Position numbers and translations under genes: made by a program. This document shows, piece by piece, positions 961 to 15,467 of a stretch of 24,000 bases of DNA (the first letter of the stretch is position 1; each line of letters begins with the position of its first letter). Source of the stretch: Candidatus Thorarchaeota archaeon (GTDB taxonomy: Archaea > Asgardarchaeota > Heimdallarchaeia > Hodarchaeales > Hodarchaeaceae); NCBI GenBank assembly GCA_048882505.1, contig JBHLRO010000018.1:1-24000 (forward strand). Reading direction: 5' to 3'. The notes under the pieces were generated by a model, which saw only the letters and a program-made list of their open reading frames with translations, was not told the origin of the DNA and did no database searches.

Positions 961-1752
961 TTAACGGCTTTTCCGAGTTGCTATCCTTTCTGAAACGAAG
1001 TTGACTCGGCTGCAGAGTGCTATAAAGAGGTCATACATCCGCCTAAGATCCAAGGACTCATTAATGAGCGAATAGATTCTAATCGTTGGGTCGTCGGCAG
1101 AATCAATAGAAATCCGCACCAGTCCTTCTCGATTGTTGTAAATAGACTTAAGCAGATCTTTGTCACCAAGGAGAAAGAGACCGCTCTTCTGAGAAGTAGC
1201 TTTAATCAAAAAATACTCATCTAGGCTGGGAACGTTGAGAGTGATTGTATCAAGAGTGAATAACAGATCCTGATGCTTTCGGATTTGCCCTTCCTCCTTT
1301 TTTGGGATGATTTGAAGTTTTGTTTGGATTTTTCCTTTCTTGGCATTAGCTTCCAAAGCGATATAGTCCTTGGCTCCTGAAAACCATGAAATGATGACAG
1401 ACAACATCAGATGGCGTTCTTCCAGCGCAAAAACTACCCGAAAGTCTTTAAAAGGAGGTGAATAAGATCCTTTATAACGGGGAATTAGGAGGCCTCCATT
1501 GGAGGAGAGTTGGTCTACAATTAAGTCATCAAACTCCTGAGAGAACACATCAAGTAATAATTCACGATTTTTCTCAACGATTTTGTGGTTTTTTCTTCTG
1601 CCAGCCCAGAGCAAGTAGAAAGTATAGAATAGAATTAATGCAGGACCGATTAATGGGAGGACGAGATCCAACCAAGAGTAAGAGCCCGTCTGAAGGAAAA
1701 ATTGGCTCAGATTTTGAAAGAATTCCATCACTAGGTAAAAGAACGCCATCAT
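961..1752 (-). CDS. Hypothetical membrane-anchored protein (one N-terminal TM helix, ~200-aa soluble region of unknown fold)
   Basis: A 263-aa ORF with an ATG-ATG start. It has a hydrophobic helix LDLVLPLIGPALILFYTFYLLWAG followed by RRK. I recognise no motif in the remainder. It is co-directional with the JAMM gene and starts 45 nt downstream of it. Confidence 0.55.
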   Translation of the reverse strand: MMAFFYLVMEFFQNLSQFFLQTGSYSWLDLVLPLIGPALILFYTFYLLWAGRRKNHKIVEKNRELLLDVFSQEFDDLIVDQLSSNGGLLIPRYKGSYSPPFKDFRVVFALEERHLMLSVIISWFSGAKDYIALEANAKKGKIQTKLQIIPKKEEGQIRKHQDLLFTLDTITLNVPSLDEYFLIKATSQKSGLFLLGDKDLLKSIYNNREGLVRISIDSADDPTIRIYSLINESLDLRRMYDLFIALCSRVNFVSERIATRKSR

Positions 1753-1797
1753 TGAACCCAGCTGTAGGGAAGATTGCCGTCGTTAATAACTGTTGTT

Positions 1798-2340
1798 TCA
1801 CGGGGCGCTTTCTCTAATGTAGCTAGCAACCTCTTGCGCACGGAAGGGTCTTTTCTCTTGTTGCCCCACAACTTGGTAACATTGAAACACGGCCCGTCCG
1901 TTGCTTTCAATCTGGGTGGGATCAATAACCAAAGCAACAGATAACGCTTGGTGCAGCTGGAAGGAGTAGATATGGGTGGAAATATCAGTCTGGGACAGGA
2001 ATAGGCCGTACCCGGGATGTGAATGCCACCAACCCACACAATGGAGATCTTCCTCGAGAAGCTGTTCAAAGGAAGAAAAATCATCTTCGGAAAATTCAAC
2101 TGAGGTCTCATCACCTTCAGTGACAAACAGAAGTCTAGTGATGAGGAGTTCGTTGGTACGGAACTCTTTACCACCAAGGAGTCCAATGGCTTCACGAGGG
2201 ATTGCCTGCTGGGCGTGTTGAGTCATTTTATCTAAAAGGGAACCCAGAAGGGTAATTGATGAAACTTGGGTTTCTAATTGGATCGGCAGTTCTCTCGGAT
2301 CTTCCGATTCTGAACGGTTCGTTAAGTTCCTTTTTGGCAT
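1798..2340 (-). CDS. JAMM/MPN+ metalloprotease (Rpn11/CSN5-like deubiquitinase candidate)
   Basis: The complete JAMM signature is present: an upstream Glu (PREAIGLLGG) and HSHPGYGLFLSQTD, which equals H-x-H-x7-S-x2-D. ATG start. It begins 27 nt downstream of the E2 gene on the same strand. Confidence 0.9.
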   Translation of the reverse strand: MPKRNLTNRSESEDPRELPIQLETQVSSITLLGSLLDKMTQHAQQAIPREAIGLLGGKEFRTNELLITRLLFVTEGDETSVEFSEDDFSSFEQLLEEDLHCVGWWHSHPGYGLFLSQTDISTHIYSFQLHQALSVALVIDPTQIESNGRAVFQCYQVVGQQEKRPFRAQEVASYIRESAP

Positions 2341-2367
2341 GAAATGTCCCCCGTTGCAATGTAAAAG

Positions 2368-2913
2368 CTAGGAGGAAGCAAATTTTTTGGTCCAAGTGAC
2401 CGCCTTGTTCCAAAAGGTGCTGAAATCCTCTTTCATTTCTTTACCAGCATCAGGATTAAAGGGATCATTTGGATCAACTAGGTATTCTGGAAAATCGTTC
2501 GTTCCAGCTGTTTGATAGACTTCTAACATCATTTCTAGATGTTCAAACACGCTCGGGAGGGTGATGGTTTCTTTCCAGCCTCCAGTCTGTCCGAGGTTAT
2601 TCCAATTCACTAGACTTAAACAGACATTAGATCCCCATTTCCATCGTGTTTCCCCTACCGCAATGTTCGGATGATAAATCTGAGTAACGAAATTACAAAT
2701 AGGAGGTTTAAAAGGATAGCTGGGAGGCAATTCTACAGCGATTTCCCAGGTTCCACCTTCATAAGGAGTTCCTTCTCGGCCCTTGACCCAGGCTCTATAC
2801 TGATGCAGATCATTGTTTACGATTTTCCATTGTATTGGGCTCGATTTAGGAGGATAGACTTTGAGCATCCTCTTGAACTCTTCTCTTAGGCGTCTTGAGT
2901 GTAAATCCTGCAA
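2368..2913 (-). CDS. Ubiquitin-conjugating enzyme E2 (UBC fold, HPN triad and catalytic Cys present)
   Basis: Motifs seen: YPFKPPICNFVTQIYHPNI...GSNVCLSLV...GW..TITL...DPNDPFNPDAGKE...W. This is the canonical UBC order: YPxxPP flap, HPN, active-site Cys, then the C-terminal DPNxxxP helix region. The start is TTG at 2913, and there is no in-frame ATG that would retain the N-terminal helix (RRLREEFKRM). Confidence 0.9.
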   Translation of the reverse strand: MQDLHSRRLREEFKRMLKVYPPKSSPIQWKIVNNDLHQYRAWVKGREGTPYEGGTWEIAVELPPSYPFKPPICNFVTQIYHPNIAVGETRWKWGSNVCLSLVNWNNLGQTGGWKETITLPSVFEHLEMMLEVYQTAGTNDFPEYLVDPNDPFNPDAGKEMKEDFSTFWNKAVTWTKKFASS

Positions 2914-3379
2914 TGCGATGCCACCTTACTGATTGAGTGCGACCTAGGGGTCTACTATATATATTGAATTTTAAATCTATTACCCTAGTATAGGCGGCCT
3001 CAAAGGTTTTACTTATTTTCCTAGTCTTCTCCTCCACCAGAAGGCGAGTTGGATCTAGGCACCGTTGAACACTTTTAAAATAGTGCTTCAAATAGTGAAA
3101 TTCCTTCCAAGTGATCCCCTAATTCTTTCAAATACTATAATACTCTAGATAGCTGAATAAAAGCTTAAAAGATTTTTGAAATCATGGATAAAATCCCACT
3201 CGAGACATGATAATACTATGAATAGATCTGAGGTTTTCTCATCCAAAATTGAAATGAGAAAGAGCAGAAAGTTATTATAAAAAGAAGGACCGCAGAGAAC
3301 AGGATCTTCATCATGAAACTTTAAAAACCTGCAATCATGATTATGGGTAGATATTGCTATTGATTAAGAGGATCTCCCT
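2914..3379. promoter_or_regulatory. AT-rich divergent intergenic region between the E2 operon and the ZnR-Ubl-E1 operon (presumed bidirectional promoter region)
   Basis: A 466-nt spacer with several TATA-like tracts: tatatatattgaattttaaat near 2955-2975, tataatact/aataaaagcttaaaag near 3135-3170, ttattataaaaag near 3272-3284 and ctttaaaaacc near 3319-3329. It has no convincing ORF. The exact promoter elements were not determined. Confidence 0.3.
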
Positions 3380-4171
3380 ATGGCAGCGCTAACTGAAGTA
3401 AGTACCTGTAACGGCTGTGGGGCTCCTCTTCCTTTCAGACCAACAGCTGGGCAGGCGGTTAAATGTGAGTACTGTGATTTGACTAACTATTTGAAGAGAT
3501 CCGTAGCCCCTGCTGAAGTCGAACAAGGTTTGGATGAAGCGATCGAATCTGAAGTATATTACCAGATATACCAAACTGCTCAAGAGATTCTGGAAAATTT
3601 CCCAGGAGAGTATGTTGGTGATGAGATCGGCAAGCTCAGGATTAAAATGCAGGTCGGACAGTACGCTTTTACCCTTCTTCTTGTATTGGATGACCTACCA
3701 GATCGCCCCTATATTGACGGTCCAGCCAAATTACGTGAGATTTTAGATTGTGAGATGACAGAGCTAGAATCCATGAAAGAATGGCGACCTGGGGTAAGTT
3801 CCGTTTTGGAGGTGTTAGAGGAGATCCATCGCCGTGCCTCGGTCGCACTTCCGGAAGCAATGGGTGAGAGTCTAGCTTCAACTACTGGAGTGGTTCCAAC
3901 TGATAGAAAAGAACGGGATCCTCTGATTCAGAAGATTCTAAGTAATTATGATGCATCTGTTTCTAAAAAGGAGATATTAATTAGATTTTACGCGGAAACG
4001 GGCGATGTTATTAACTTTACCATTAAAAGGAAGAAGAATTTCCCTATTGGTCTTGAGAGCGAAATCCTTGCAAAATATCCGCTCATCCGTGGTCCCTTGG
4101 AGGATTATGCTAAAGGTCGAATTGATCTCCTGCAAACATTATCAGAAATTGAACGTTTATTATACGTTTAG
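3380..4171 (+). CDS. Zn-ribbon protein with a possible divergent UBC/UEV/RWD-like core (function unknown)
   Basis: ATG start. The N-terminus has CNGC-x15-CEYC (a four-Cys ribbon). Further on, YAFTLLLVLDDLPDRPYIDGPAKLREILDCEMTELESMKEWRPGVSSVLEVLEEI resembles the E2 pattern of YPxxPP flap ... C ... W-x-P-x-h-x-x-VL, but it lacks the HPN triad. It is the first gene of the plus-strand Ubl-E1 run. Confidence 0.55.
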   Translation: MAALTEVSTCNGCGAPLPFRPTAGQAVKCEYCDLTNYLKRSVAPAEVEQGLDEAIESEVYYQIYQTAQEILENFPGEYVGDEIGKLRIKMQVGQYAFTLLLVLDDLPDRPYIDGPAKLREILDCEMTELESMKEWRPGVSSVLEVLEEIHRRASVALPEAMGESLASTTGVVPTDRKERDPLIQKILSNYDASVSKKEILIRFYAETGDVINFTIKRKKNFPIGLESEILAKYPLIRGPLEDYAKGRIDLLQTLSEIERLLYV

Positions 4172-4266
4172 AAAAGGTACAAAGGTGAGTTTCGATTAGC
4201 AAGAAAAAAGATGTGGTCTGGGATTCAGGCTCAAAACGCGCGCCCTCCTCTGAGGGTATTGAAAAA

Positions 4267-4518
4267 ATGATCAAAGTTCGATTCAAGGATCCTCAATTGC
4301 CGCCTGATCAAAATGTCAAGGAGAAATATGTAAATCTGCAAGGAAATGTGTTTCAAGCAATTTCAGCGGCGCGCGATGCATTTAATATTCCTGAGGTAGT
4401 GCCCATCGCCCTATTGTATAAGGGACGTCGGTTAAATCCCTCGAACACCTTGAGTTCATATGGAATCGAGCAAAACTCGATGTTGATGATCGTCCCCGAC
4501 CAGATTAAAGGTGGGTAA
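4267..4518 (+). CDS. Ubiquitin-like beta-grasp modifier ending in Gly-Gly-stop
   Basis: MIKVRFKD...LLYKGRRLNPSNTLSSYGIEQNSMLMIVPDQIKGG*. The C-terminal half parallels ubiquitin ([34 protein letters not shown]). The codons are ggt ggg taa at 4510-4518. The ORF track starts at GTG 4213. I prefer ATG 4267, which gives 83 aa and matches the beta-1 strand start. Confidence 0.85.
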   Translation: MIKVRFKDPQLPPDQNVKEKYVNLQGNVFQAISAARDAFNIPEVVPIALLYKGRRLNPSNTLSSYGIEQNSMLMIVPDQIKGG

Positions 4519-4602
4519 CTCTTCTATTCTGAAGTCATAGAATCTGGTCATAGCTGGCAGGTCAACCTTACAAAAAAGGGAACGTCCGCCTGATTCAGTG
4601 TC

Positions 4603-5844
4603 GTGGAATACCAAATGATGACGGACTCTAGGGCTTCAAGGTATGATCGCCAAGAACGTCTTGTATTATGGGATCAACGGCTTATATCAAACTCTTGTGT
4701 CCTCATAGCAGGTGTTGGGGGAACCGGCAGCGAAGTAGCGAAAAACCTGGCACTTCTTGGAATTGGGAGGCTCATCCTAGTGGATCAAGATACAGTGGAA
4801 TACTCCAATCTCAATCGACAAATGTTGTTTAGCGAGAAGGATGTTGAGAAACGAAAGGTTGTTGCAGCGAAGCAGAACATAGCGGAGAACTTGAATCCTA
4901 ATCTTGAAATTGATATTCATAGCCAAACCCTCCAATCGATACCACAAAGGGTGTTTGAGGAAGTTGACATTATTGCAGGTTGTATAGACAATTTTCTGGG
5001 TAGACAATTTCTGAATGCACAAGCCATTGAACTGTACAAACCCTATATCGATTCTGCTACTGACGGTTTTTTTGGACAGGTTCAGTATGTAAAACATGAA
5101 ACCTCAGCATGCCTAGCATGTGATAATCCACTGCCGCCCGAAGAATTCCAGATTCTTACTGAACCGTGTACTTTAGTTGGGGTACCACGCATCAGAGAAC
5201 ATTGTGGCTGGAAGGCCTTATACGATTTTAATACAGCCTATCAACGGATGCCAGATGAGAATTCAACGGAGGAGCTAGCTTGGCTAATTGAGCGGGCCAA
5301 TCGCTATGCTGTCGAGTATAATTTCGGGCAATTTGAGAAGATGGAGCTTCTCCAGATGATACTCTTCCATGTTCCAAGTCTTGTGACCGTCAATGCTGTT
5401 ATTAGTGGCATTCAAAGCCAGGAAATCGTTAAGGCCCTTTTTCTCGAAAAGAAGTCTCAACTGAATAAGGATGAAAGAGCTACACTTGAGAGATTGCAGA
5501 AGGGTAATCGATACCGGATTCCCCATCTTACAATTTACTCTGCGTTGACTGGAACCGTTAATTCCTTCGATCTTGTCCCTGATCAAGAATGTTTAGTTTG
5601 TGGGTCATTATCTACTTCACGAAAAAAGCTAGCTGAGATCCGTGTAAGCAGGAACTCATTATTTCAATCCGTATTGGAAAAAATGGGTTATAGAAATCAT
5701 ACTGAGTACATCGGATTTCGAGGAAATTATCACATTCCAGAAGATGTAACCCTAGGGGAGGTTCTTTCTGATGGTGATCGGATCACGTTGAGTTCAATAA
5801 ACAATGACAATGAACTACGGTTGAAAGTTCGGTTTATTGACTAA
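4603..5844 (+). CDS. E1-like ubiquitin-activating (ThiF/MoeB/UBA-family adenylating) enzyme with a C-terminal beta-grasp-like extension
   Basis: RYDRQERLVLWDQRLISNSCVLIAGVGGTGSEVAKNLALLGIGRLILVDQDTVEYSNLNRQMLF is the classic Rossmann/nucleotide motif of the family. Two CxxC pairs are present (CLACD and CLVCG, a structural Zn site). The C-terminal ~70 aa (…LGEVLSDGDRITLSS…LRLKVRFID) looks beta-grasp/UFD-like. The start may be GTG 4603 or ATG 4615/4618. Confidence 0.9.
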   Translation: MEYQMMTDSRASRYDRQERLVLWDQRLISNSCVLIAGVGGTGSEVAKNLALLGIGRLILVDQDTVEYSNLNRQMLFSEKDVEKRKVVAAKQNIAENLNPNLEIDIHSQTLQSIPQRVFEEVDIIAGCIDNFLGRQFLNAQAIELYKPYIDSATDGFFGQVQYVKHETSACLACDNPLPPEEFQILTEPCTLVGVPRIREHCGWKALYDFNTAYQRMPDENSTEELAWLIERANRYAVEYNFGQFEKMELLQMILFHVPSLVTVNAVISGIQSQEIVKALFLEKKSQLNKDERATLERLQKGNRYRIPHLTIYSALTGTVNSFDLVPDQECLVCGSLSTSRKKLAEIRVSRNSLFQSVLEKMGYRNHTEYIGFRGNYHIPEDVTLGEVLSDGDRITLSSINNDNELRLKVRFID

Positions 5845-5882: not shown

Positions 5883-6233
5883 TTAATCGTCTGTTTTCGA
5901 GGGAATAAAAACTTTGATCTTCTTCCGTTCCTTAGGTTGAATTACGGGTATAGGGGGGTTAATATATGGTTTTTTATATCCTAACTCGGGTTCTACTGTA
6001 TCTTGCTTACCGAGCGAGGCAAGTTTATCGTAAAGCTGACTATAGATCTTATCCTTGGAGGGCTGTTGTTGATTGGATTTTTGAATAGGCTTGGAACGTT
6101 GATATCTCCTAGGTTGGGAAACGACATTGGCCTTCCCACAGCGAGGGCAAAACCAACGACCAGAAATCGGTTTATCTCTGGGAACATGACCACAATGTCG
6201 ACATTGTAAAGATTCTTCATTCTCTGGATTCAC
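5883..6233 (-). CDS. Small Zn-ribbon protein with a Lys/Pro/Gln-rich low-complexity tail (unknown function)
   Basis: CRHCGHVPRDKPISGRWFCPRCG (CxxC-x15-CxxC) at the N-terminus, followed by ~85 aa of polar low-complexity sequence. GTG start. It is a stand-alone gene, convergent with E1 and divergent from the 588-aa gene. Confidence 0.45.
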   Translation of the reverse strand: MNPENEESLQCRHCGHVPRDKPISGRWFCPRCGKANVVSQPRRYQRSKPIQKSNQQQPSKDKIYSQLYDKLASLGKQDTVEPELGYKKPYINPPIPVIQPKERKKIKVFIPSKTDD

Positions 6234-6425: not shown

Positions 6426-8192
6426 ATGATTTTCACAAACAGAGCCAAACGGTGGCTCTCTAAAGCACAGGCAACTGAAATTCCTCTTTTATTACCACAA
6501 GAAGACCGTACCGGGATTGCCGAGTTCCTGAGAGAAAAAATCGAAGCCAATGAGGTCTTTGGTATTGTTACTCCAGATGATACTACTTTCTTCCCTGATA
6601 AGTATATTGAACAAAACCTACGGCTCCAACTCCAAAAGCAGGGCTTCATTGACATCTGTGCTTTGATTGACCTGACCCAAGGTAAACTACCTGGGCGGAT
6701 ATTGGAATTGAAAATTCTGGCGCATGTCCAGGAAATAGATGGGTTTTTGGACATTATTTTTCGACGTTTTTTCACACCGCAGGGGGCAGAAAATTTCTTG
6801 AAACAATATTTAGCGAATAAGACCGTTGTGCCCTTAAAAACGATTTTGAATGACCTGTATTGGGGAGAAGACTACGTAGAAGCCATTTTAGACCTTCTAT
6901 CCGAGAAAAACCTTTTCCGTGGATACCTTGATCCAATTAAACAGCGATTATATAATTTTACAAACCTGAATTTCACTTCAGAAGTTGATCGGGAGAAGGC
7001 GAATAAGCAGCTAATTCGCTATATCAAGAGAAGCTTTCAACTGGGCGCCGAAGTAGCTATCAGTGATATTTGTGGGTTGACGGGATTTTCCCAAGAAGAG
7101 AGTATTCGTTTCCTGCAGAAAAATCGTGGATCCCTTAGTTTTGTGATTTCAACTAAGCGAAATTATGTATATCCCACTTTAGAGATCGTAATCAATATTT
7201 TGAGAGATCTTATTGTCTATCGAAAAGTTCCAATTGCATTCTGGGAACAGCGGCTTGATGTGGCAAAAATCGAGCTTTTAGGGCTATTACGAATCTTGAA
7301 TGGCAGCTTGAATGGCCAAATTTCGCCAACTACCTATTCAGGCCCTCTCCTACGCGAATGGTTTCGGAACGGTATTGATATCGAGGGATTGGCTGCAGAT
7401 CTAAATCTTGATCCCCTTCTTCTCCTCGGGCGCATCCGAACACTGGGAGAAAAATACGGATTAAGATTCATTGCGGGCGATACGGCCAATCCCTTTCTCC
7501 TCAAGGGCGTCCTAAGTTTCGAGATTTTTTGTCAGGTGGATACTTCTTCTTATCAAGATCCACATCTGTATTTTGAGTGCCAAAACTGTAAGCGAATATT
7601 GTGTAGCAATTGCAGGTCGGCGGGAAGCAAGCATAGCTGTCCTTTTTGTGAGAACATAGCGGCGTTCATTATTGATCTTCCACGGCACTGCCCTGATTGT
7701 AAGATTACCTACACGCATTCTTACAACCTAATAAGTACGGAAGAATGCTATTTCTGTAAAAAAGGCCCTTTGGCGAGCGGGTGGTTACCACCAAAGCCAA
7801 TATCCGATAAGCTCCTGGATCCCCATCTTTCAGAATTATTAGCTCATTCAGATTCAGAAATCCCATTGCAGGCGATAATTTCGACTTTGGGATGGTCTGA
7901 TGCAGAAGTAGTTGCCCATCTTGAAGAAATGATTATTTCTAACCAAATCAATGGCAATATCGACATATGGAATACTTCCCTCCGTCTTGAGCGAGCGCCC
8001 ACCTTGTTTCGTTGCAGTGTTTGTGAAAAACTTAAGACAGATAAAACTCGGTATAAATGTGTATCATGTAGCAATAACGTTTGTCTAACATGCCATGGTG
8101 ATATGCATACAGTAGGAATGGTTATCTGTCCCCAATGCAGTGGAGAGTTAAAACCAGAGGACTCTGGTACGTCATCTTCGAGTCAGGATTAG
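6426..8192 (+). CDS. Multi-winged-helix repeat protein with two Cys-rich Zn clusters (second ZZ-finger-like); function unknown, E3/adaptor candidate
   Basis: A 588-aa ORF with an ATG start and GAGGA upstream. Segments of the PCI/WH type recur at least six times, for example VVPLKTILNDLYWGEDYVEAILDLLSEKNLFRGYLD, VAISDICGLTGFSQEESIRFLQK...LSFVISTKRNYVYP and IPLQAIISTLGWSDAEVVAHLEEMIISNQINGNID. Cys cluster 1 spans aa 385-444 (nt 7578-7757) and has five CxxC pairs. Cys cluster 2 spans aa 530-571 (nt 8013-8138): CSVC-x11-(RYK)CVSC-x4-CLTCHGDMH-x8-CPQC. Confidence 0.7.
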   Translation: MIFTNRAKRWLSKAQATEIPLLLPQEDRTGIAEFLREKIEANEVFGIVTPDDTTFFPDKYIEQNLRLQLQKQGFIDICALIDLTQGKLPGRILELKILAHVQEIDGFLDIIFRRFFTPQGAENFLKQYLANKTVVPLKTILNDLYWGEDYVEAILDLLSEKNLFRGYLDPIKQRLYNFTNLNFTSEVDREKANKQLIRYIKRSFQLGAEVAISDICGLTGFSQEESIRFLQKNRGSLSFVISTKRNYVYPTLEIVINILRDLIVYRKVPIAFWEQRLDVAKIELLGLLRILNGSLNGQISPTTYSGPLLREWFRNGIDIEGLAADLNLDPLLLLGRIRTLGEKYGLRFIAGDTANPFLLKGVLSFEIFCQVDTSSYQDPHLYFECQNCKRILCSNCRSAGSKHSCPFCENIAAFIIDLPRHCPDCKITYTHSYNLISTEECYFCKKGPLASGWLPPKPISDKLLDPHLSELLAHSDSEIPLQAIISTLGWSDAEVVAHLEEMIISNQINGNIDIWNTSLRLERAPTLFRCSVCEKLKTDKTRYKCVSCSNNVCLTCHGDMHTVGMVICPQCSGELKPEDSGTSSSSQD

Positions 8193-9079
8193 CTGAGTTG
8201 GCTCTTATATTGCGCTAACTTCTTGGAGTACTTATCAGATAGTTCCTTGTATTTATCTTCTGAAATCTTCCCATTAAGGAACATTTCATCTGCTTGTTCC
8301 ACCATGAGTTCATATTTCTTGATTTTCTCTGCAATGTCATCAAACTGTTCTCGCTCTTCTGCCAAAGATCGCTGCTGTTCTAGAACCTGTTTTTCTACTT
8401 CATATGCCAGCAGAGATTGATACTCATCGGGAACCTTAAATCCCCCTATATCCAGTCCAACAAGTTCCAAGCCCCAGCGAGAAGTCTCAGGACCCAATTC
8501 CGCACGGGTCTGGATTTCAAGGCTGCGTCGTTCTCTCAATAATTCCGGAACTGTGTAACGGGACATCACATGCTTGACGGCCCCAATTATGGTTTGTTTC
8601 ACCCAGTTCTTTAGTTCCTCGCTTGAATAATACTGCCTGTGAGAGACTACATTTGAAATGAAATTTCGGGGATTAACTATCCTCATTCGGGAAATTCCGT
8701 AACAACCTATCATGACATTGTCTGCGGATAAAATCCCAGGCGTTCCCCATCTGATAACGAATTCTCGTTTACTTACCCAGATTATTTCGCTACCCGGGCG
8801 TTTTGCTAGCTTATCCAGTTCATATATTCCACTTCCTGCAACACCTACCAGTGTACCCGACTGTAGAAGTACAGCATTTTCAGGATCTTTGACAATAAAG
8901 CCATCATCTTTACGGAAACCATCTCGATCGTCAGAACGAACTCGTGAAACTAGCGAACCTCCATTCTCTTCACTAAAATCAGAGCTTAAGATGGTTTTTC
9001 CACGAAATCTTTTGGAACCAAGGTGTACTGCGTCGCCAATCCTGCGGAACAATCCCCCGAATTTCTCGACTTCTGTCAT
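8189..9079 (-). CDS. SPFH/Band-7 superfamily protein of the YdjI-like (Band_7_1) type with a C-terminal coiled coil
   Basis: The pattern ...AVLLQSGTLVGVAGSGIYEL...IIWVSKREFVIRWGTPGIL...GCYGISRMRIVNPRNF...WGLELVGLDIGGFKVPDEY matches the soluble YdjI/COG4260-type SPFH domain as I remember it. A heptad-rich tail follows (EQQRSLAEEREQ...KYKELSDKYSKKLAQYK). The ORF track starts at TTG 9091, overlapping the EAP30 stop. ATG 9079 lies 5 nt after that stop. Confidence 0.65.
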   Translation of the reverse strand: MTEVEKFGGLFRRIGDAVHLGSKRFRGKTILSSDFSEENGGSLVSRVRSDDRDGFRKDDGFIVKDPENAVLLQSGTLVGVAGSGIYELDKLAKRPGSEIIWVSKREFVIRWGTPGILSADNVMIGCYGISRMRIVNPRNFISNVVSHRQYYSSEELKNWVKQTIIGAVKHVMSRYTVPELLRERRSLEIQTRAELGPETSRWGLELVGLDIGGFKVPDEYQSLLAYEVEKQVLEQQRSLAEEREQFDDIAEKIKKYELMVEQADEMFLNGKISEDKYKELSDKYSKKLAQYKSQLS

Positions 9080-9084
9080 CTTTT

Positions 9085-10053
9085 TCACCAATCATCGCCA
9101 TAAAGGCCAGGAAAGTAGTACTGGTATCCCGAATCAAGAGAGGAAACTTTTCTTGCAATCTTTTGCTTAACTAGACCTTCCAAGACTCGTATCACACGTT
9201 GCTGTTCCCATTTTGTGTTTAAAACAACATCTTCAAGTGTAACAAAACCTTTGTCAACTGCAAGACTAAAAACGCGTTCAGCATCTTTACCCAATGAAAC
9301 GGGTACAAATTCAACGATTTTGACCCCTGAACGTTCTGAAATGCCCTCGATCAGTGATTGTTTCTGCAGATTTTTACACGCGTTTTCGATGTCCTTGACA
9401 GAGAACTTCACATCAGGAACCTGATCTTTTAGTGCGGTATAAAGGTTTGCAAGAGAAATATAGCCTCCGGAACTTGCGCGCAGATTTTTTCCATATTGGA
9501 GAACTAAATCTGAGATTTGGTCTCTAAATTTGCCCCTACCAAACAAACGGGGTCTTTCAGTTGCATCTAGCGCTGTGATTGTTAAAGCCCTACCTTCCTT
9601 ACGTAAAAGTTCTCTTTCAAGTTGCTGGATCCGCGTATCATAACGCTTTTGAAGATCCCTGATCTGTTCAGTCGAAACGCTGGCGCCATCGGCCAATTTT
9701 TGCTGAATATGGATTACTTCCCCCAAGCGAGCGATATGTTCACCAATTTCCTTTATGGTATTGCGGACCTCAATTCCTTCTTCACCAAAATCAAGATCTT
9801 CTGCTAGCTTTTGTGACTGTTCTGCAATTCTTTCACAGAGCACCGAGGCCAATAATTGGGCTACTCGAATTTCGCCACTTGTCTGGAGATCGGACTTGGT
9901 CTGGTCAGGATGAAGAATAAAATCAGGTATTGTTTCCGAACTGTAACGGATTTCTTCAAATTTCGTAAATAGATTCATAGAAATATCCGCAGCACTTCGG
10001 GCTTTTGTTGAAATACTATTGTTTAAGGCAATTAACGCCTTATTTGCCTTCAT
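9085..10053 (-). CDS. ESCRT-II-type EAP30 domain protein (Vps22/Vps36-like) with a long N-terminal coiled-coil region
   Basis: The C-terminal ~165 aa reads GGYISLANLYTALKDQ...SVKDIENACKNLQKQSLIEGISERSGVKIVEF...GFVTLEDVVLNTKWEQQRVIRVLEGLVKQKIARKVSSLDSGYQYYFPGLY. This is the tandem winged-helix EAP30 pattern, including the terminal Y-x-FP. The ORF track starts at TTG 10092. ATG 10053 (MKANKALIAL...) is preferred. Confidence 0.85.
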   Translation of the reverse strand: MKANKALIALNNSISTKARSAADISMNLFTKFEEIRYSSETIPDFILHPDQTKSDLQTSGEIRVAQLLASVLCERIAEQSQKLAEDLDFGEEGIEVRNTIKEIGEHIARLGEVIHIQQKLADGASVSTEQIRDLQKRYDTRIQQLERELLRKEGRALTITALDATERPRLFGRGKFRDQISDLVLQYGKNLRASSGGYISLANLYTALKDQVPDVKFSVKDIENACKNLQKQSLIEGISERSGVKIVEFVPVSLGKDAERVFSLAVDKGFVTLEDVVLNTKWEQQRVIRVLEGLVKQKIARKVSSLDSGYQYYFPGLYGDDW

Positions 10054-10255
10054 AAAATACTCTTGCAACGCTCTGAATCTCCAGAGGATCAAGTCTTTTT
10101 ATTCGATCAAAGCGAGTCCCTGCTTTCATCCTTAAAAACCTTGGCTTCTAGTATTGAAAAGCTGCTTTTCGAGGGAATTCCCAAACAAATATTAGCCCCC
10201 TCAAGAGATTGACCACGTTCTATCGTGGGAAAGAGAAATATTCCGAGTTTTACTA

Positions 10256-15203: not shown

Positions 15204-15467
15204 TTAGAGAATTCTTTCCAAAATTACTGTCCATCCCCTGGCCTCAACGATCCGAATATGCTGAGGTAAAGAATCTCGAAGTGCAGTCAGGGCTTCCTCC
15301 TTCGATGAAAAGGGAGCGGATTTACCTACTCGAATTTTCACCACCTTGTGCCGCTTAAGTTGCATTTCCAATTCTGTAAATACATCAATAGAAAATCCGT
15401 TCTTACCTATTTGTAGGATGGCGGGATCCTTTCGTACTTGAACCAGATCATCTTTCTTGCTGGGCAT
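15204..15467 (-). CDS. CRS1/YhbY (CRM) domain RNA-binding protein
   Basis: PAILQIGKNGFSIDVFTELEMQLKRHKVVKIRV...EALTAL...VEARGWTVILER matches the YhbY pattern (IGK-G ... L..HELVKVK). It is 87 aa long. Confidence 0.7.
   Translation of the reverse strand: MPSKKDDLVQVRKDPAILQIGKNGFSIDVFTELEMQLKRHKVVKIRVGKSAPFSSKEEALTALRDSLPQHIRIVEARGWTVILERIL

Follow-up and report, generated by a model that had tools for sequence, protein, structure and literature searches.

A probable eukaryote-type ubiquitin-like conjugation cluster with two candidate ligase components in a Hodarchaeales-type Asgard genome

The stretch of DNA analysed here (24,000 nucleotides of contig JBHLRO010000018.1, referred to below as the window) comes from a Hodarchaeales-type Asgard genome and carries a cluster of genes for ubiquitin-like conjugation and deconjugation: a ubiquitin-like modifier (Ubl), an activating enzyme (E1), a conjugating enzyme (E2) and a JAMM metalloprotease, together with a zinc-ribbon protein and a membrane protein. 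A first-pass annotation had described these as six genes in two divergent runs, with a Ubl ending in KGG-stop. All six are present in the open reading frame (ORF) list of the window, with the motifs, the gaps between genes and the 466-nucleotide (nt) spacer that it reported. The features of the cluster and of the genes next to it are listed here, with the basis of each assignment in brackets.

961..1752, minus strand: TM263, a 263-residue membrane protein, last gene of the minus operon (ORF)
1798..2340, minus strand: JAMM/MPN metalloprotease, 180 residues (ORF, Pfam)
2368..2913, minus strand: UBC-type E2, 181 residues (ORF, Pfam)
2914..3379, no strand: divergent intergenic spacer, 466 nt (length, GC content)
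3380..4171, plus strand: zinc-ribbon and double-RWD protein (ZnR-DRWD), 263 residues, first gene of the Ubl-E1 operon (ORF)
4213..4518, plus strand: Ubl modifier, 101 residues (ORF, Pfam)
4603..5844, plus strand: E1, 413 residues (ORF, Pfam)
5883..6233, minus strand: Zn116, a 116-residue zinc-ribbon protein (ORF, weak Pfam matches)
6426..8192, plus strand: UFL1-like protein, 588 residues (Pfam family, AlphaFold2, Foldseek)
8189..9091, minus strand: SPFH/Band-7 protein, 300 residues (Band_7 1.2e-17)
9085..10092, minus strand: EAP30/Vps22-like protein of ESCRT-II, an endosomal sorting complex, 335 residues (EAP30 1.3e-8)

The genes of the minus run are separated by 45 nt (TM263/JAMM) and 27 nt (JAMM/E2). 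The spacer between the two runs has the length first reported, and its description as AT-rich holds only modestly (GC content 35.6%, compared with 41.8% for the window). Its length ranges from about 200 to 650 nt across species, TATA-like A/T boxes can be read in it near 2954-2975 and 3317-3330, and it presumably carries the promoters of both operons. Rfam and tRNA scans of the window found no RNA family and no tRNA. The span originally proposed for the cluster, 961-5844, takes in the core genes and stops short of two conserved genes, those for Zn116 (5883-6233) and the 588-residue protein (6426-8192), the latter lying two genes beyond E1.

Core enzymes and modifier

Pfam searches agree with the identities first given to the four core proteins: the E2 matches UQ_con (5e-23), the JAMM protein Prok-JAB (5e-13) and JAB (1e-11), the Ubl Rad60-SLD (4e-7) and ubiquitin (4e-6), and the E1 ThiF (1e-50). 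The E2 contains IYHPNIAVGETRWKWGSNVCLSLV, and its best matches in a profile search of the PDB are all eukaryotic E2s/UBCs, with E-values of 4e-17 to 1e-14. Across 21 sequences, two distant operons among them, H81, P82, N83 and C98 do not vary, and a family-specific WKWGSN insertion precedes Cys98. The protein is a canonical UBC-type E2 with an HPN motif and Cys98 as its predicted catalytic residue.

The E1 contains the motifs GVGGTGSE and NLNRQ, and its profile lies nearest to the active adenylation domains of eukaryotic UBA1, UBA6, UBA7, SAE2 and UBA3. UBA1 (1.5e-56), SAE2 (1.6e-48) and UBA3 (4e-47), with UBA6 and UBA7 also in the top group, rank above ThiF (1e-36), MoeB (9e-35) and UBA5 (4e-28). 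The segment TEPCTLVGVPRIREHC aligns with the catalytic-cysteine motif of UBA1, PICTLKNFPNAIEHT, and takes the form PCTLVG.PR..EHC. All 21 sequences keep the GxGGxG and NLNRQ motifs and two CxxC pairs; 20 of them also keep the PCT motif. We read the protein as a single-chain enzyme with a UBA1/UBA3-type adenylation domain, a predicted catalytic cysteine and a likely CxxC...CxxC zinc site. In the closest relative (TM2S.58, locus L001, 88% identity), the E1 gene at 4367-5599 has an in-frame stop in the range defined by tblastn; possible explanations are an error in sequencing, a pseudogene or a recoding site.

The JAMM protein contains HSHPGYGLFLSQTD and carries the motif E...HxHx7Sx2D. The glutamate and HSHPGxGLFLSxTD are shared by the window, by the 17 syntenic loci long enough to include the gene, and by the distant operons L025 and L026 (19 related loci). 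We predict that it is a Ubl isopeptidase and, where needed, a precursor-processing enzyme.

The Ubl ends in IKGG followed directly by a stop codon, and would thus be made in mature form. The same GG-stop is found in 19 of 21 loci; the ends seen in other relatives are GGN, GGC, GGFI or GGFLSISN, and these short tails make a processing role for JAMM plausible there. The family has the signature FKDPQLPP...LMIVPDxIxGG. Comparisons using hhalign matched ubiquitin (5.4e-6, 51 columns), NEDD8 (3e-5), UFM1 (1.1e-4, 75 columns) and SUMO1 (1e-3), and the Ubl had no hit to Pfam Ufm1. Judged from these comparisons, it is probably a divergent beta-grasp modifier with remote similarity to known modifiers. 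A conserved N-terminal extension of about 17 residues (4213-4266), with an invariant Trp3, precedes the beta-grasp region. Most species start the gene at GTG, a few at ATG. The Ubl sequence read from the upstream GTG at 4213 has no exact counterpart in a collection of 15 billion proteins, nor has that of the E1; public gene calls apparently use other starts for both.

The good score of the ThiF/MoeB-type adenylation domain, and weak NCBIfam matches to desampylase and SAMP-E1, could also point to a system of the sulfur-carrier or SAMP/Urm1 type, whose E1-like enzyme would activate the beta-grasp protein mainly for sulfur transfer. This seems to us very improbable. The NCBIfam scores fall far under the family cut-offs, the cluster has a dedicated cysteine-bearing E2 and the E1 a UBA1-type catalytic-cysteine motif, Pfam analysis of the window proteins found neither a rhodanese domain nor a neighbouring MoaE or ThiG, and hhalign gave no match between the Ubl and URM1.

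Conserved gene order

A locus scan using one genome per GTDB species gave 21 loci. An identical order of 14 genes is found in 15 full-length loci of other species, and five further loci, truncated by a contig end or a run of N, agree as far as their sequence reaches. With strands in brackets where they were recorded, the order is Arf, Arf, TM263 (-), JAMM (-), E2 (-), and then, across the spacer, ZnR-DRWD (+), Ubl (+), E1 (+), Zn116 (-), the 588-residue protein (+), SPFH (-), EAP30 (-), GNAT (-) and aIF2-alpha (-). Such an arrangement is far beyond chance. Identity to the window, omitting the near-identical locus L001, is 87-91% for Arf, 73-81% for SPFH, 71-84% for Ubl, 72-76% for E2, 61-75% for EAP30 (94% in L001), 59-65% for TM263, 58-69% for ZnR-DRWD, 51-62% for E1, 49-63% for JAMM, 42-51% for the 588-residue protein and 36-43% for Zn116 (86% in L001).

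In about 20 species no defence genes were found among the neighbours of the cluster, which are genes of translation, replication and ribosome biogenesis. A fixed place among housekeeping genes speaks for a cellular system rather than a defence island. PADLOC gave only generic matches for the E1 and JAB proteins, and no match for E2, Ubl, ZnR-DRWD, TM263 or the 588-residue protein. A bacterial-type antiphage conjugation system acquired by this archaeon, similar to Bil or to CBASS Cap2/Cap3, would share the same four-component logic and could produce those generic matches. However, the E2 and Ubl are without a PADLOC match, E1 and E2 are separate genes, their closest relatives are eukaryotic, and the cluster holds the same housekeeping position throughout; we regard the defence reading as essentially excluded. 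A defence-island context, raised in the first-pass annotation as something that would tell against a cellular role, was looked for and is not what we see, since the 14-gene order is fixed in the 15 complete loci. The preference of that annotation for a eukaryote-like cellular system is upheld by the UBA1-type E1 profile and the exclusively eukaryotic E2 matches as well as by this synteny and the PADLOC results.

Relatives of the proteins specific to this cluster all come from genomes labelled as Hodarchaeales or Heimdallarchaeia, and the window is of a Hodarchaeales-type Asgard genome. The source metagenome-assembled genome (MAG) is listed by NCBI as 'Candidatus Thorarchaeota archaeon' (proteins MFW9856022-29), and labels vary within the same submission series, which includes Promethearchaeota, Hermodarchaeota and Hodarchaeota. 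The close relatives and the syntenic loci are all of Hodarchaeales or Heimdallarchaeia type, and the Thorarchaeota label is probably wrong or provisional.

Two candidate ligase components

The first gene of the Ubl-E1 operon encodes a protein for which we found no Pfam, NCBIfam or PDB sequence match. It had been noted as a zinc-ribbon protein, and the N-terminal CxxC...CxxC ribbon is indeed there, with C10, C13, C29 and C32 invariant; the rest of the protein can now be assigned as well. An AlphaFold2 model made with a 38-sequence alignment (predicted local distance difference test, pLDDT, 79.5) consists of the ribbon and two alpha-beta4-alpha-alpha domains, at residues 49-160 and 181-262. A Foldseek search with this model placed FANCL first (7kzp_L, 2.6e-4; 7kzp_M, 5.7e-4; and the DRWD fragment 3zqs), followed by many E2s and the tandem RWD of KNL1. 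On the strength of the modelled domains and these fold matches we describe the protein as a zinc ribbon joined to a double RWD, which by its model would be a non-catalytic protein of E2 fold. Cys124 was considered as a catalytic residue; it is one residue short of invariant in Hodarchaeales and is absent from distant relatives, and because it is not kept there ZnR-DRWD is treated as non-catalytic. A SUMO2 match to the C-terminal half was also set aside, as it is weak and the model has an RWD lobe at this place, not a beta-grasp. Direct profile comparison of ZnR-DRWD with the E2 of the cluster was not significant, and the model has no RING/PHD-type finger, the window protein ending after its second RWD. 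We consider ZnR-DRWD to be a candidate Ubl/E2-binding cofactor or substrate adaptor.

An exhaustive profile search across 1.84 billion representatives turned up no more than 26 relatives of ZnR-DRWD. One group comprises zinc-ribbon proteins with three RWD domains (ZnR-3RWD), 331-348 residues long; the third domain of one of them, P0198, is above the Pfam RWD cut-off. Those of the other group are approximately 280-634 residues long and combine three or four RWD/E2-like domains with a Cys/His-rich finger at the C-terminus. The two that were scanned against Pfam, P0207 and P0210, match UQ_con (1e-9 and 6e-8) and RWD (7e-8 and 6e-8), and P0207 also matches Prok-RING_1 at 1e-3. The architecture of this group is FANCL-like. 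The finger (in P0207 and P0209-P0218) follows the pattern CxxCH...CPxC...CPHC...HxHCW...CGFC; only short contigs were found for the one member that was looked up.

Five distinct operon layouts have the ZnR-RWD gene immediately upstream of the Ubl gene, and this pair is the most persistent adjacency of the system. The distant loci are arranged as follows.

L021: ZnR-DRWD, Ubl, E1
L022 and L023: UFL1-like protein divergent from ZnR-3RWD; the genes called within about 8 kb include neither E1 nor E2
L024: ZnR-3RWD, Ubl, E1, E2
L025: ZnR-3RWD, Ubl, E1, E2, JAB
L026: winged-helix-array protein, E1, E2, JAB, ZnR-3RWD, Ubl

In L021, L024, L025 and L026 the RWD family recurs with Ubl, E1, E2 or JAB genes; in L022 and L026 it is accompanied by a UFL1-like protein. 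L021 is the most distant locus that keeps the trio of ZnR-DRWD, Ubl and E1. Upstream of the trio, at 2978-4470, it has two paralogous coiled-coil proteins of about 238 residues with a C-terminal transmembrane (TM) helix, of the tail-anchored type, in place of E2, JAMM and TM263. The L022 contig, from a hot-spring-type metagenome, encodes at 3236-5629 a 797-residue protein adjoining the pair of UFL1-like and ZnR-3RWD genes; its Pfam matches are faint (Ig-like/CARDB) or weak (TRAP-beta). A metagenome scan for distant ZnR-RWD loci found two only, one a near-duplicate of L022 and the other matching just the first 40 residues.

The non-catalytic E2-like fold of ZnR-DRWD, which recalls UEV domains, raises the question of whether the protein belongs to a ligase. 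It could instead read the Ubl as UEV proteins do, or be the main Ubl substrate; an ESCRT-I-like receptor that passes tagged cargo to the Vps22-like neighbour would be one example. The tightest conserved adjacency of ZnR-DRWD, which is to the Ubl gene, fits this idea, and UEV domains of Asgard Vps23 homologues bind ubiquitin (PMC9192718). Several observations nevertheless make it unlikely. The model of ZnR-DRWD contains no steadiness box or Vps28-like region, and Hodarchaeia have a UEV-Vps23 elsewhere (10.1101/2023.07.25.550441). Furthermore, some relatives are fused to RING-like fingers in the manner of FANCL, while others have a UFL1-like neighbour, and the genes called within about 8 kb of these include neither a Ubl nor an ESCRT gene. 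We continue to regard ZnR-DRWD as a candidate cofactor or adaptor.

The second candidate is the 588-residue protein. In its Hodarchaeales family, Pfam E3_UFM1_ligase is matched by 17 of 39 members and PCI by 27 of 39, and a profile search of the PDB matches human UFL1 structures at 2e-6 to 2e-5. The AlphaFold2 model (pLDDT 80, predicted template modelling score 0.69) gives UFL1 as the top Foldseek match (8ohd_A, 1.1e-9; 8qfc_B, 2.8e-9). It is made up of a winged-helix array, a central Cys-rich module, a PCI/DDRGK-like winged-helix domain and a C-terminal C4C4 finger. There are 19 invariant cysteines in the family, the last eight of which are spaced as C-x2-C-x11-C-x2-C-x4-C-x2-C-x11-C-x2-C. 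Matches of the C-terminus to RING fingers are weak but consistent (p44 at 0.005, and UHRF1, MAT1, BRE1, TRIM56 and CNOT4), and in direct hhalign comparison the finger matches the MAT1 RING (probability score 85.6, E 5.6e-6), its eight ligands all falling in register, and the C4C4 RING of CNOT4 at 0.0029. The first-pass annotation had seen no RING ligase; the product of 6426-8192, beyond its span, ends in just such a RING-type finger. Its suggestion that neighbouring genes of unknown function might supply the ligase or adaptor has turned out well, in that ZnR-DRWD and the 588-residue protein are now candidates.

Homologues of the 588-residue protein occur in the distant loci. That in L022 (660 residues) matches E3_UFM1_ligase at 28.3 bits, above the cut-off, and the 588-residue profile at 1.8e-8, while that in L026 (579 residues) matches DDRGK at 2.5e-5 and the 588-residue profile at 1.8e-12. 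The RING-type finger on a UFL1-like scaffold belongs to the conserved gene set, and sequence and model together make the protein a candidate E3 ligase.

In TM263 a single TM helix at the N-terminus leads into RRKNHK and then into a conserved domain predicted to be cytosolic. An alignment of 18 orthologues shows the hydrophobic segment, the basic stretch and many invariant residues, and a profile search of 5.8 billion sequences found the family confined to Hodarchaeales-type MAGs (67 clusters). It is a possible membrane anchor. Sub-threshold Pfam matches to CCDC47 were found in 11 of the 18 members (best 4e-4); they include the TM helix, and homology to CCDC47 was not adopted, being kept as a weak lead. 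The link was not reproduced in the profile searches of the PDB and of the 5.8 billion sequences, or by hhalign against human CCDC47. Zn116 has an N-terminal CxxC...CxxC zinc ribbon, with weak Pfam zinc-ribbon matches, and a basic, low-complexity tail. It has the same place in 17 loci and is conserved in position only.

Given the UFL1-like fold and Pfam matches of the 588-residue protein, a winged-helix scaffold of UFL1 type with DDRGK-like winged-helix matches, the cluster might be an archaeal forerunner of the UFM1 pathway, consisting of a UFM1-like modifier and a UFL1/DDRGK1-like scaffold anchored by TM263, with membrane-bound ribosomes or translocons as its possible targets. Human UFM1 and the Ubl can be aligned over their whole length, with 32% identity over 73 columns (the 75-column match at 1.1e-4 was obtained with a broader alignment of the Ubl family), and the CCDC47 matches of TM263 would suit such a location. 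Ufm1 homologues have been reported in nine Asgard clades (PMC12962969). However, in the E1 comparison UBA5 scores worse than ThiF and MoeB and much worse than UBA1. HPN is invariant in the E2, a motif that UFC1 is not known to have. The only protease in the cluster is a JAMM enzyme, not a cysteine protease of the UFSP type; the Ubl ends in GG, not VG, has no Pfam Ufm1 hit and scores better against ubiquitin and NEDD8; and the link from TM263 to CCDC47 did not recur. The Ubl was accordingly not taken to be a true UFM1, the end-to-end alignment being weak and the E1, E2 and protease of the wrong type, and a UFM1 forerunner is in our view improbable.

Proposed mechanism and comparison with known systems

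We consider it likely that the cluster is a core cellular, eukaryote-type system for ubiquitin-like conjugation and deconjugation in a Hodarchaeales-type Asgard archaeon, with two candidate ligase or adaptor parts. What is observed is the gene content, the catalytic motifs, the folds of the two accessory proteins, the synteny and the co-occurrence across lineages; from these we infer the biochemical steps, the E3 and adaptor roles, the membrane localisation and the coupling to ESCRT. In the proposed mechanism, the E1 would adenylate the C-terminal Gly-Gly of the 101-residue Ubl, hold it as a thioester on the cysteine of PCTLVG and hand it to Cys98 of the HPN-type E2. Transfer to targets would most likely be directed by the two accessory proteins: the winged-helix scaffold of 588 residues, whose C-terminal C4C4 RING-type finger would dock the charged E2, and ZnR-DRWD, a non-catalytic E2-fold cofactor or adaptor that may bind Ubl, E2 or substrate. 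JAMM would reverse the modification and, in relatives with a tail after the GG of the Ubl, would also mature the precursor. The single-pass TM263, the SPFH protein and the Vps22-like ESCRT-II neighbour suggest that the system may act at a membrane.

Several points weigh against this interpretation. The link to ESCRT is the adjacency to one Vps22-like gene, and in Hodarchaeia another ubiquitin gene is reported to lie next to UEV-Vps23 (Lu et al., preprint 10.1101/2023.07.25.550441), so that the Ubl of the window may not be the ubiquitin of ESCRT-I. The resemblance of the Ubl to ubiquitin is remote and its fold is predicted from sequence. The C-terminal 130 or so residues of the E1 did not align with anything in the profile comparisons, and a ubiquitin-fold domain there is putative. 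The central zinc module in the model of the 588-residue protein is of low confidence (pLDDT 35-60), and the RING fingers among the best matches to its C-terminus, such as MAT1 and p44, are not all ligases. Finally, the searches made with TM263 gave no confirmed homologue of known function.

A more far-reaching proposal, which we consider possible if doubtful, is that the Ubl represents a third, Asgard-wide family of modifiers, neither ubiquitin nor UFM1, with machinery of its own. Its ligase would be a composite of a zinc-ribbon/tandem-RWD cofactor and a winged-helix RING scaffold, combining parts that eukaryotes later split into UFL1-type and FANCL/RWD-type ligases, and in Hodarchaeales the system would be tethered to the membrane by a lineage-specific single-pass protein.

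Studies by Spang in 2015 and Zaremba-Niedzwiedzka in 2017 are said to have found the ubiquitin system of Asgard archaea in the same place as ESCRT genes. Published Asgard clusters have ubiquitin, E1, E2, UFL1-type E3 (IPR018611) and MPN genes next to ESCRT genes (Hatano et al., 2022, PMC9192718; Makarova et al., 2024, PMC10936438), IPR018611 being the marker used for the Asgard E3 (PMC9192718), and a Helarchaeial cascade of E1, E2 and RING E3 is active in vitro (10.1101/2023.07.25.550441). This type of cluster is therefore already known for Asgard archaea, and what the window adds is the newly assigned accessory parts. Like the published loci, it has Ubl, E1, E2, MPN/JAMM and a UFL1-type E3 beside ESCRT-II Vps22-like and SPFH genes, and one of our syntenic loci (L015) is Heimdallarchaeote B3_Heim, whose ubiquitin/ESCRT region is drawn in Figure 1C of Hatano et al. 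Unlike them, the window has no ESCRT-I, Vps25, ESCRT-III or Vps4. In the literature searched, coverage of which was partial, we found no description of the zinc-ribbon/tandem-RWD operon partner, of a RING-type finger on the UFL1-like protein or of TM263; what Tromer et al. note in Asgard is limited to "an RWD-like domain" (PMC6601020).

The operon of Caldiarchaeum subterraneum, comprising ubiquitin, E1, E2, a small RING finger protein and Rpn11, has been characterised (PMC6043591), and Hennell James 2017 is cited in PMC9192718 for work on it. The cluster described here is similarly compact, with a eukaryote-like E1, E2, Ubl and JAMM, and JAMM-dependent precursor processing is plausible in those relatives whose Ubl has a tail after GG. 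It differs in that the window Ubl would be made mature (GG-stop), in that the RING-type finger forms the C-terminus of a 588-residue winged-helix scaffold and not a small stand-alone protein, and in having an extra RWD protein and a membrane protein.

The accessory proteins invite comparison with two eukaryotic ligases. UFL1/DDRGK1 (PDB 8ohd, 8qfc, 8b9x and 8c0d) shares the PCI-like winged-helix array and is the best match of the 588-residue protein in structure and sequence; UFL1 is not known to have a RING finger. The partners of UFL1 are UFC1, UBA5, UFM1 and UFSP, whereas those in the window are a UBC-type E2 with HPN motif, a UBA1-type E1, a GG-ended Ubl and a JAMM protease. FANCL (PDB 7kzp and 3zqs), an E3 with the domains ELF-DRWD-RING, has tandem RWD/E2-like lobes and is the best structural match of ZnR-DRWD, and distant relatives have three to four RWD domains and a C-terminal RING-like finger. 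In contrast to FANCL, ZnR-DRWD has an N-terminal zinc ribbon and no RING of its own, and an identity of about 15% does not show common ancestry beyond the RWD superfamily.

The ubiquitin systems of Asgard archaea are relevant to the origin of eukaryotic protein tagging and ESCRT sorting, and the way in which they select substrates is poorly defined. Two conserved candidates for a specificity module can now be named: ZnR-DRWD, beside the Ubl, and the UFL1-like scaffold with its RING-type finger. The genes for ZnR-RWD and UFL1-like proteins travel together in distant Asgard lineages, and the question of the unassigned ligase can be reduced to a small reconstitution. There may be a prokaryotic root for parts of both RWD/FANCL-type and UFL1-type ligases.

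The genes flanking the cluster are consistent with those noticed at first pass, with Pfam matches to Arf (2e-47) and EAP30 (1.3e-8). EAP30, a tandem winged-helix family protein adjoining the ubiquitin-system genes, and SPFH, which has a C-terminal coiled coil, are each syntenic in 16 loci. Their genes overlap by 7 nt and look co-transcribed, and the stop codon of SPFH overlaps that of the convergent 588-residue gene. Associations of SPFH with ESCRT have been noted (PMC10936438). On the other side, a pair of Arf-family GTPases stands directly beside TM263 in every syntenic locus that reaches far enough upstream; in the window the proximal Arf, at 355-930, is the most conserved gene of the block, and the C-terminal end of the second GTPase, at about 184-345, is cut by the start of the window. 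The remaining genes of the window are GINS, prepilin peptidase, Roadblock/Arf-like pairs, a class II aminoacyl-tRNA synthetase, aIF2-beta, NMD3 and an RsmB-type methyltransferase. Between 14090 and 16275 lie a Roadblock/LC7 protein (164 residues), an Arf/Ras-like GTPase (199 residues), a small YhbY/CRM-like ORF on the opposite strand (15204-15467) and a second Roadblock/LC7 protein (134 residues), which together resemble a GTPase module of MglA/MglB or Rag/LAMTOR type.

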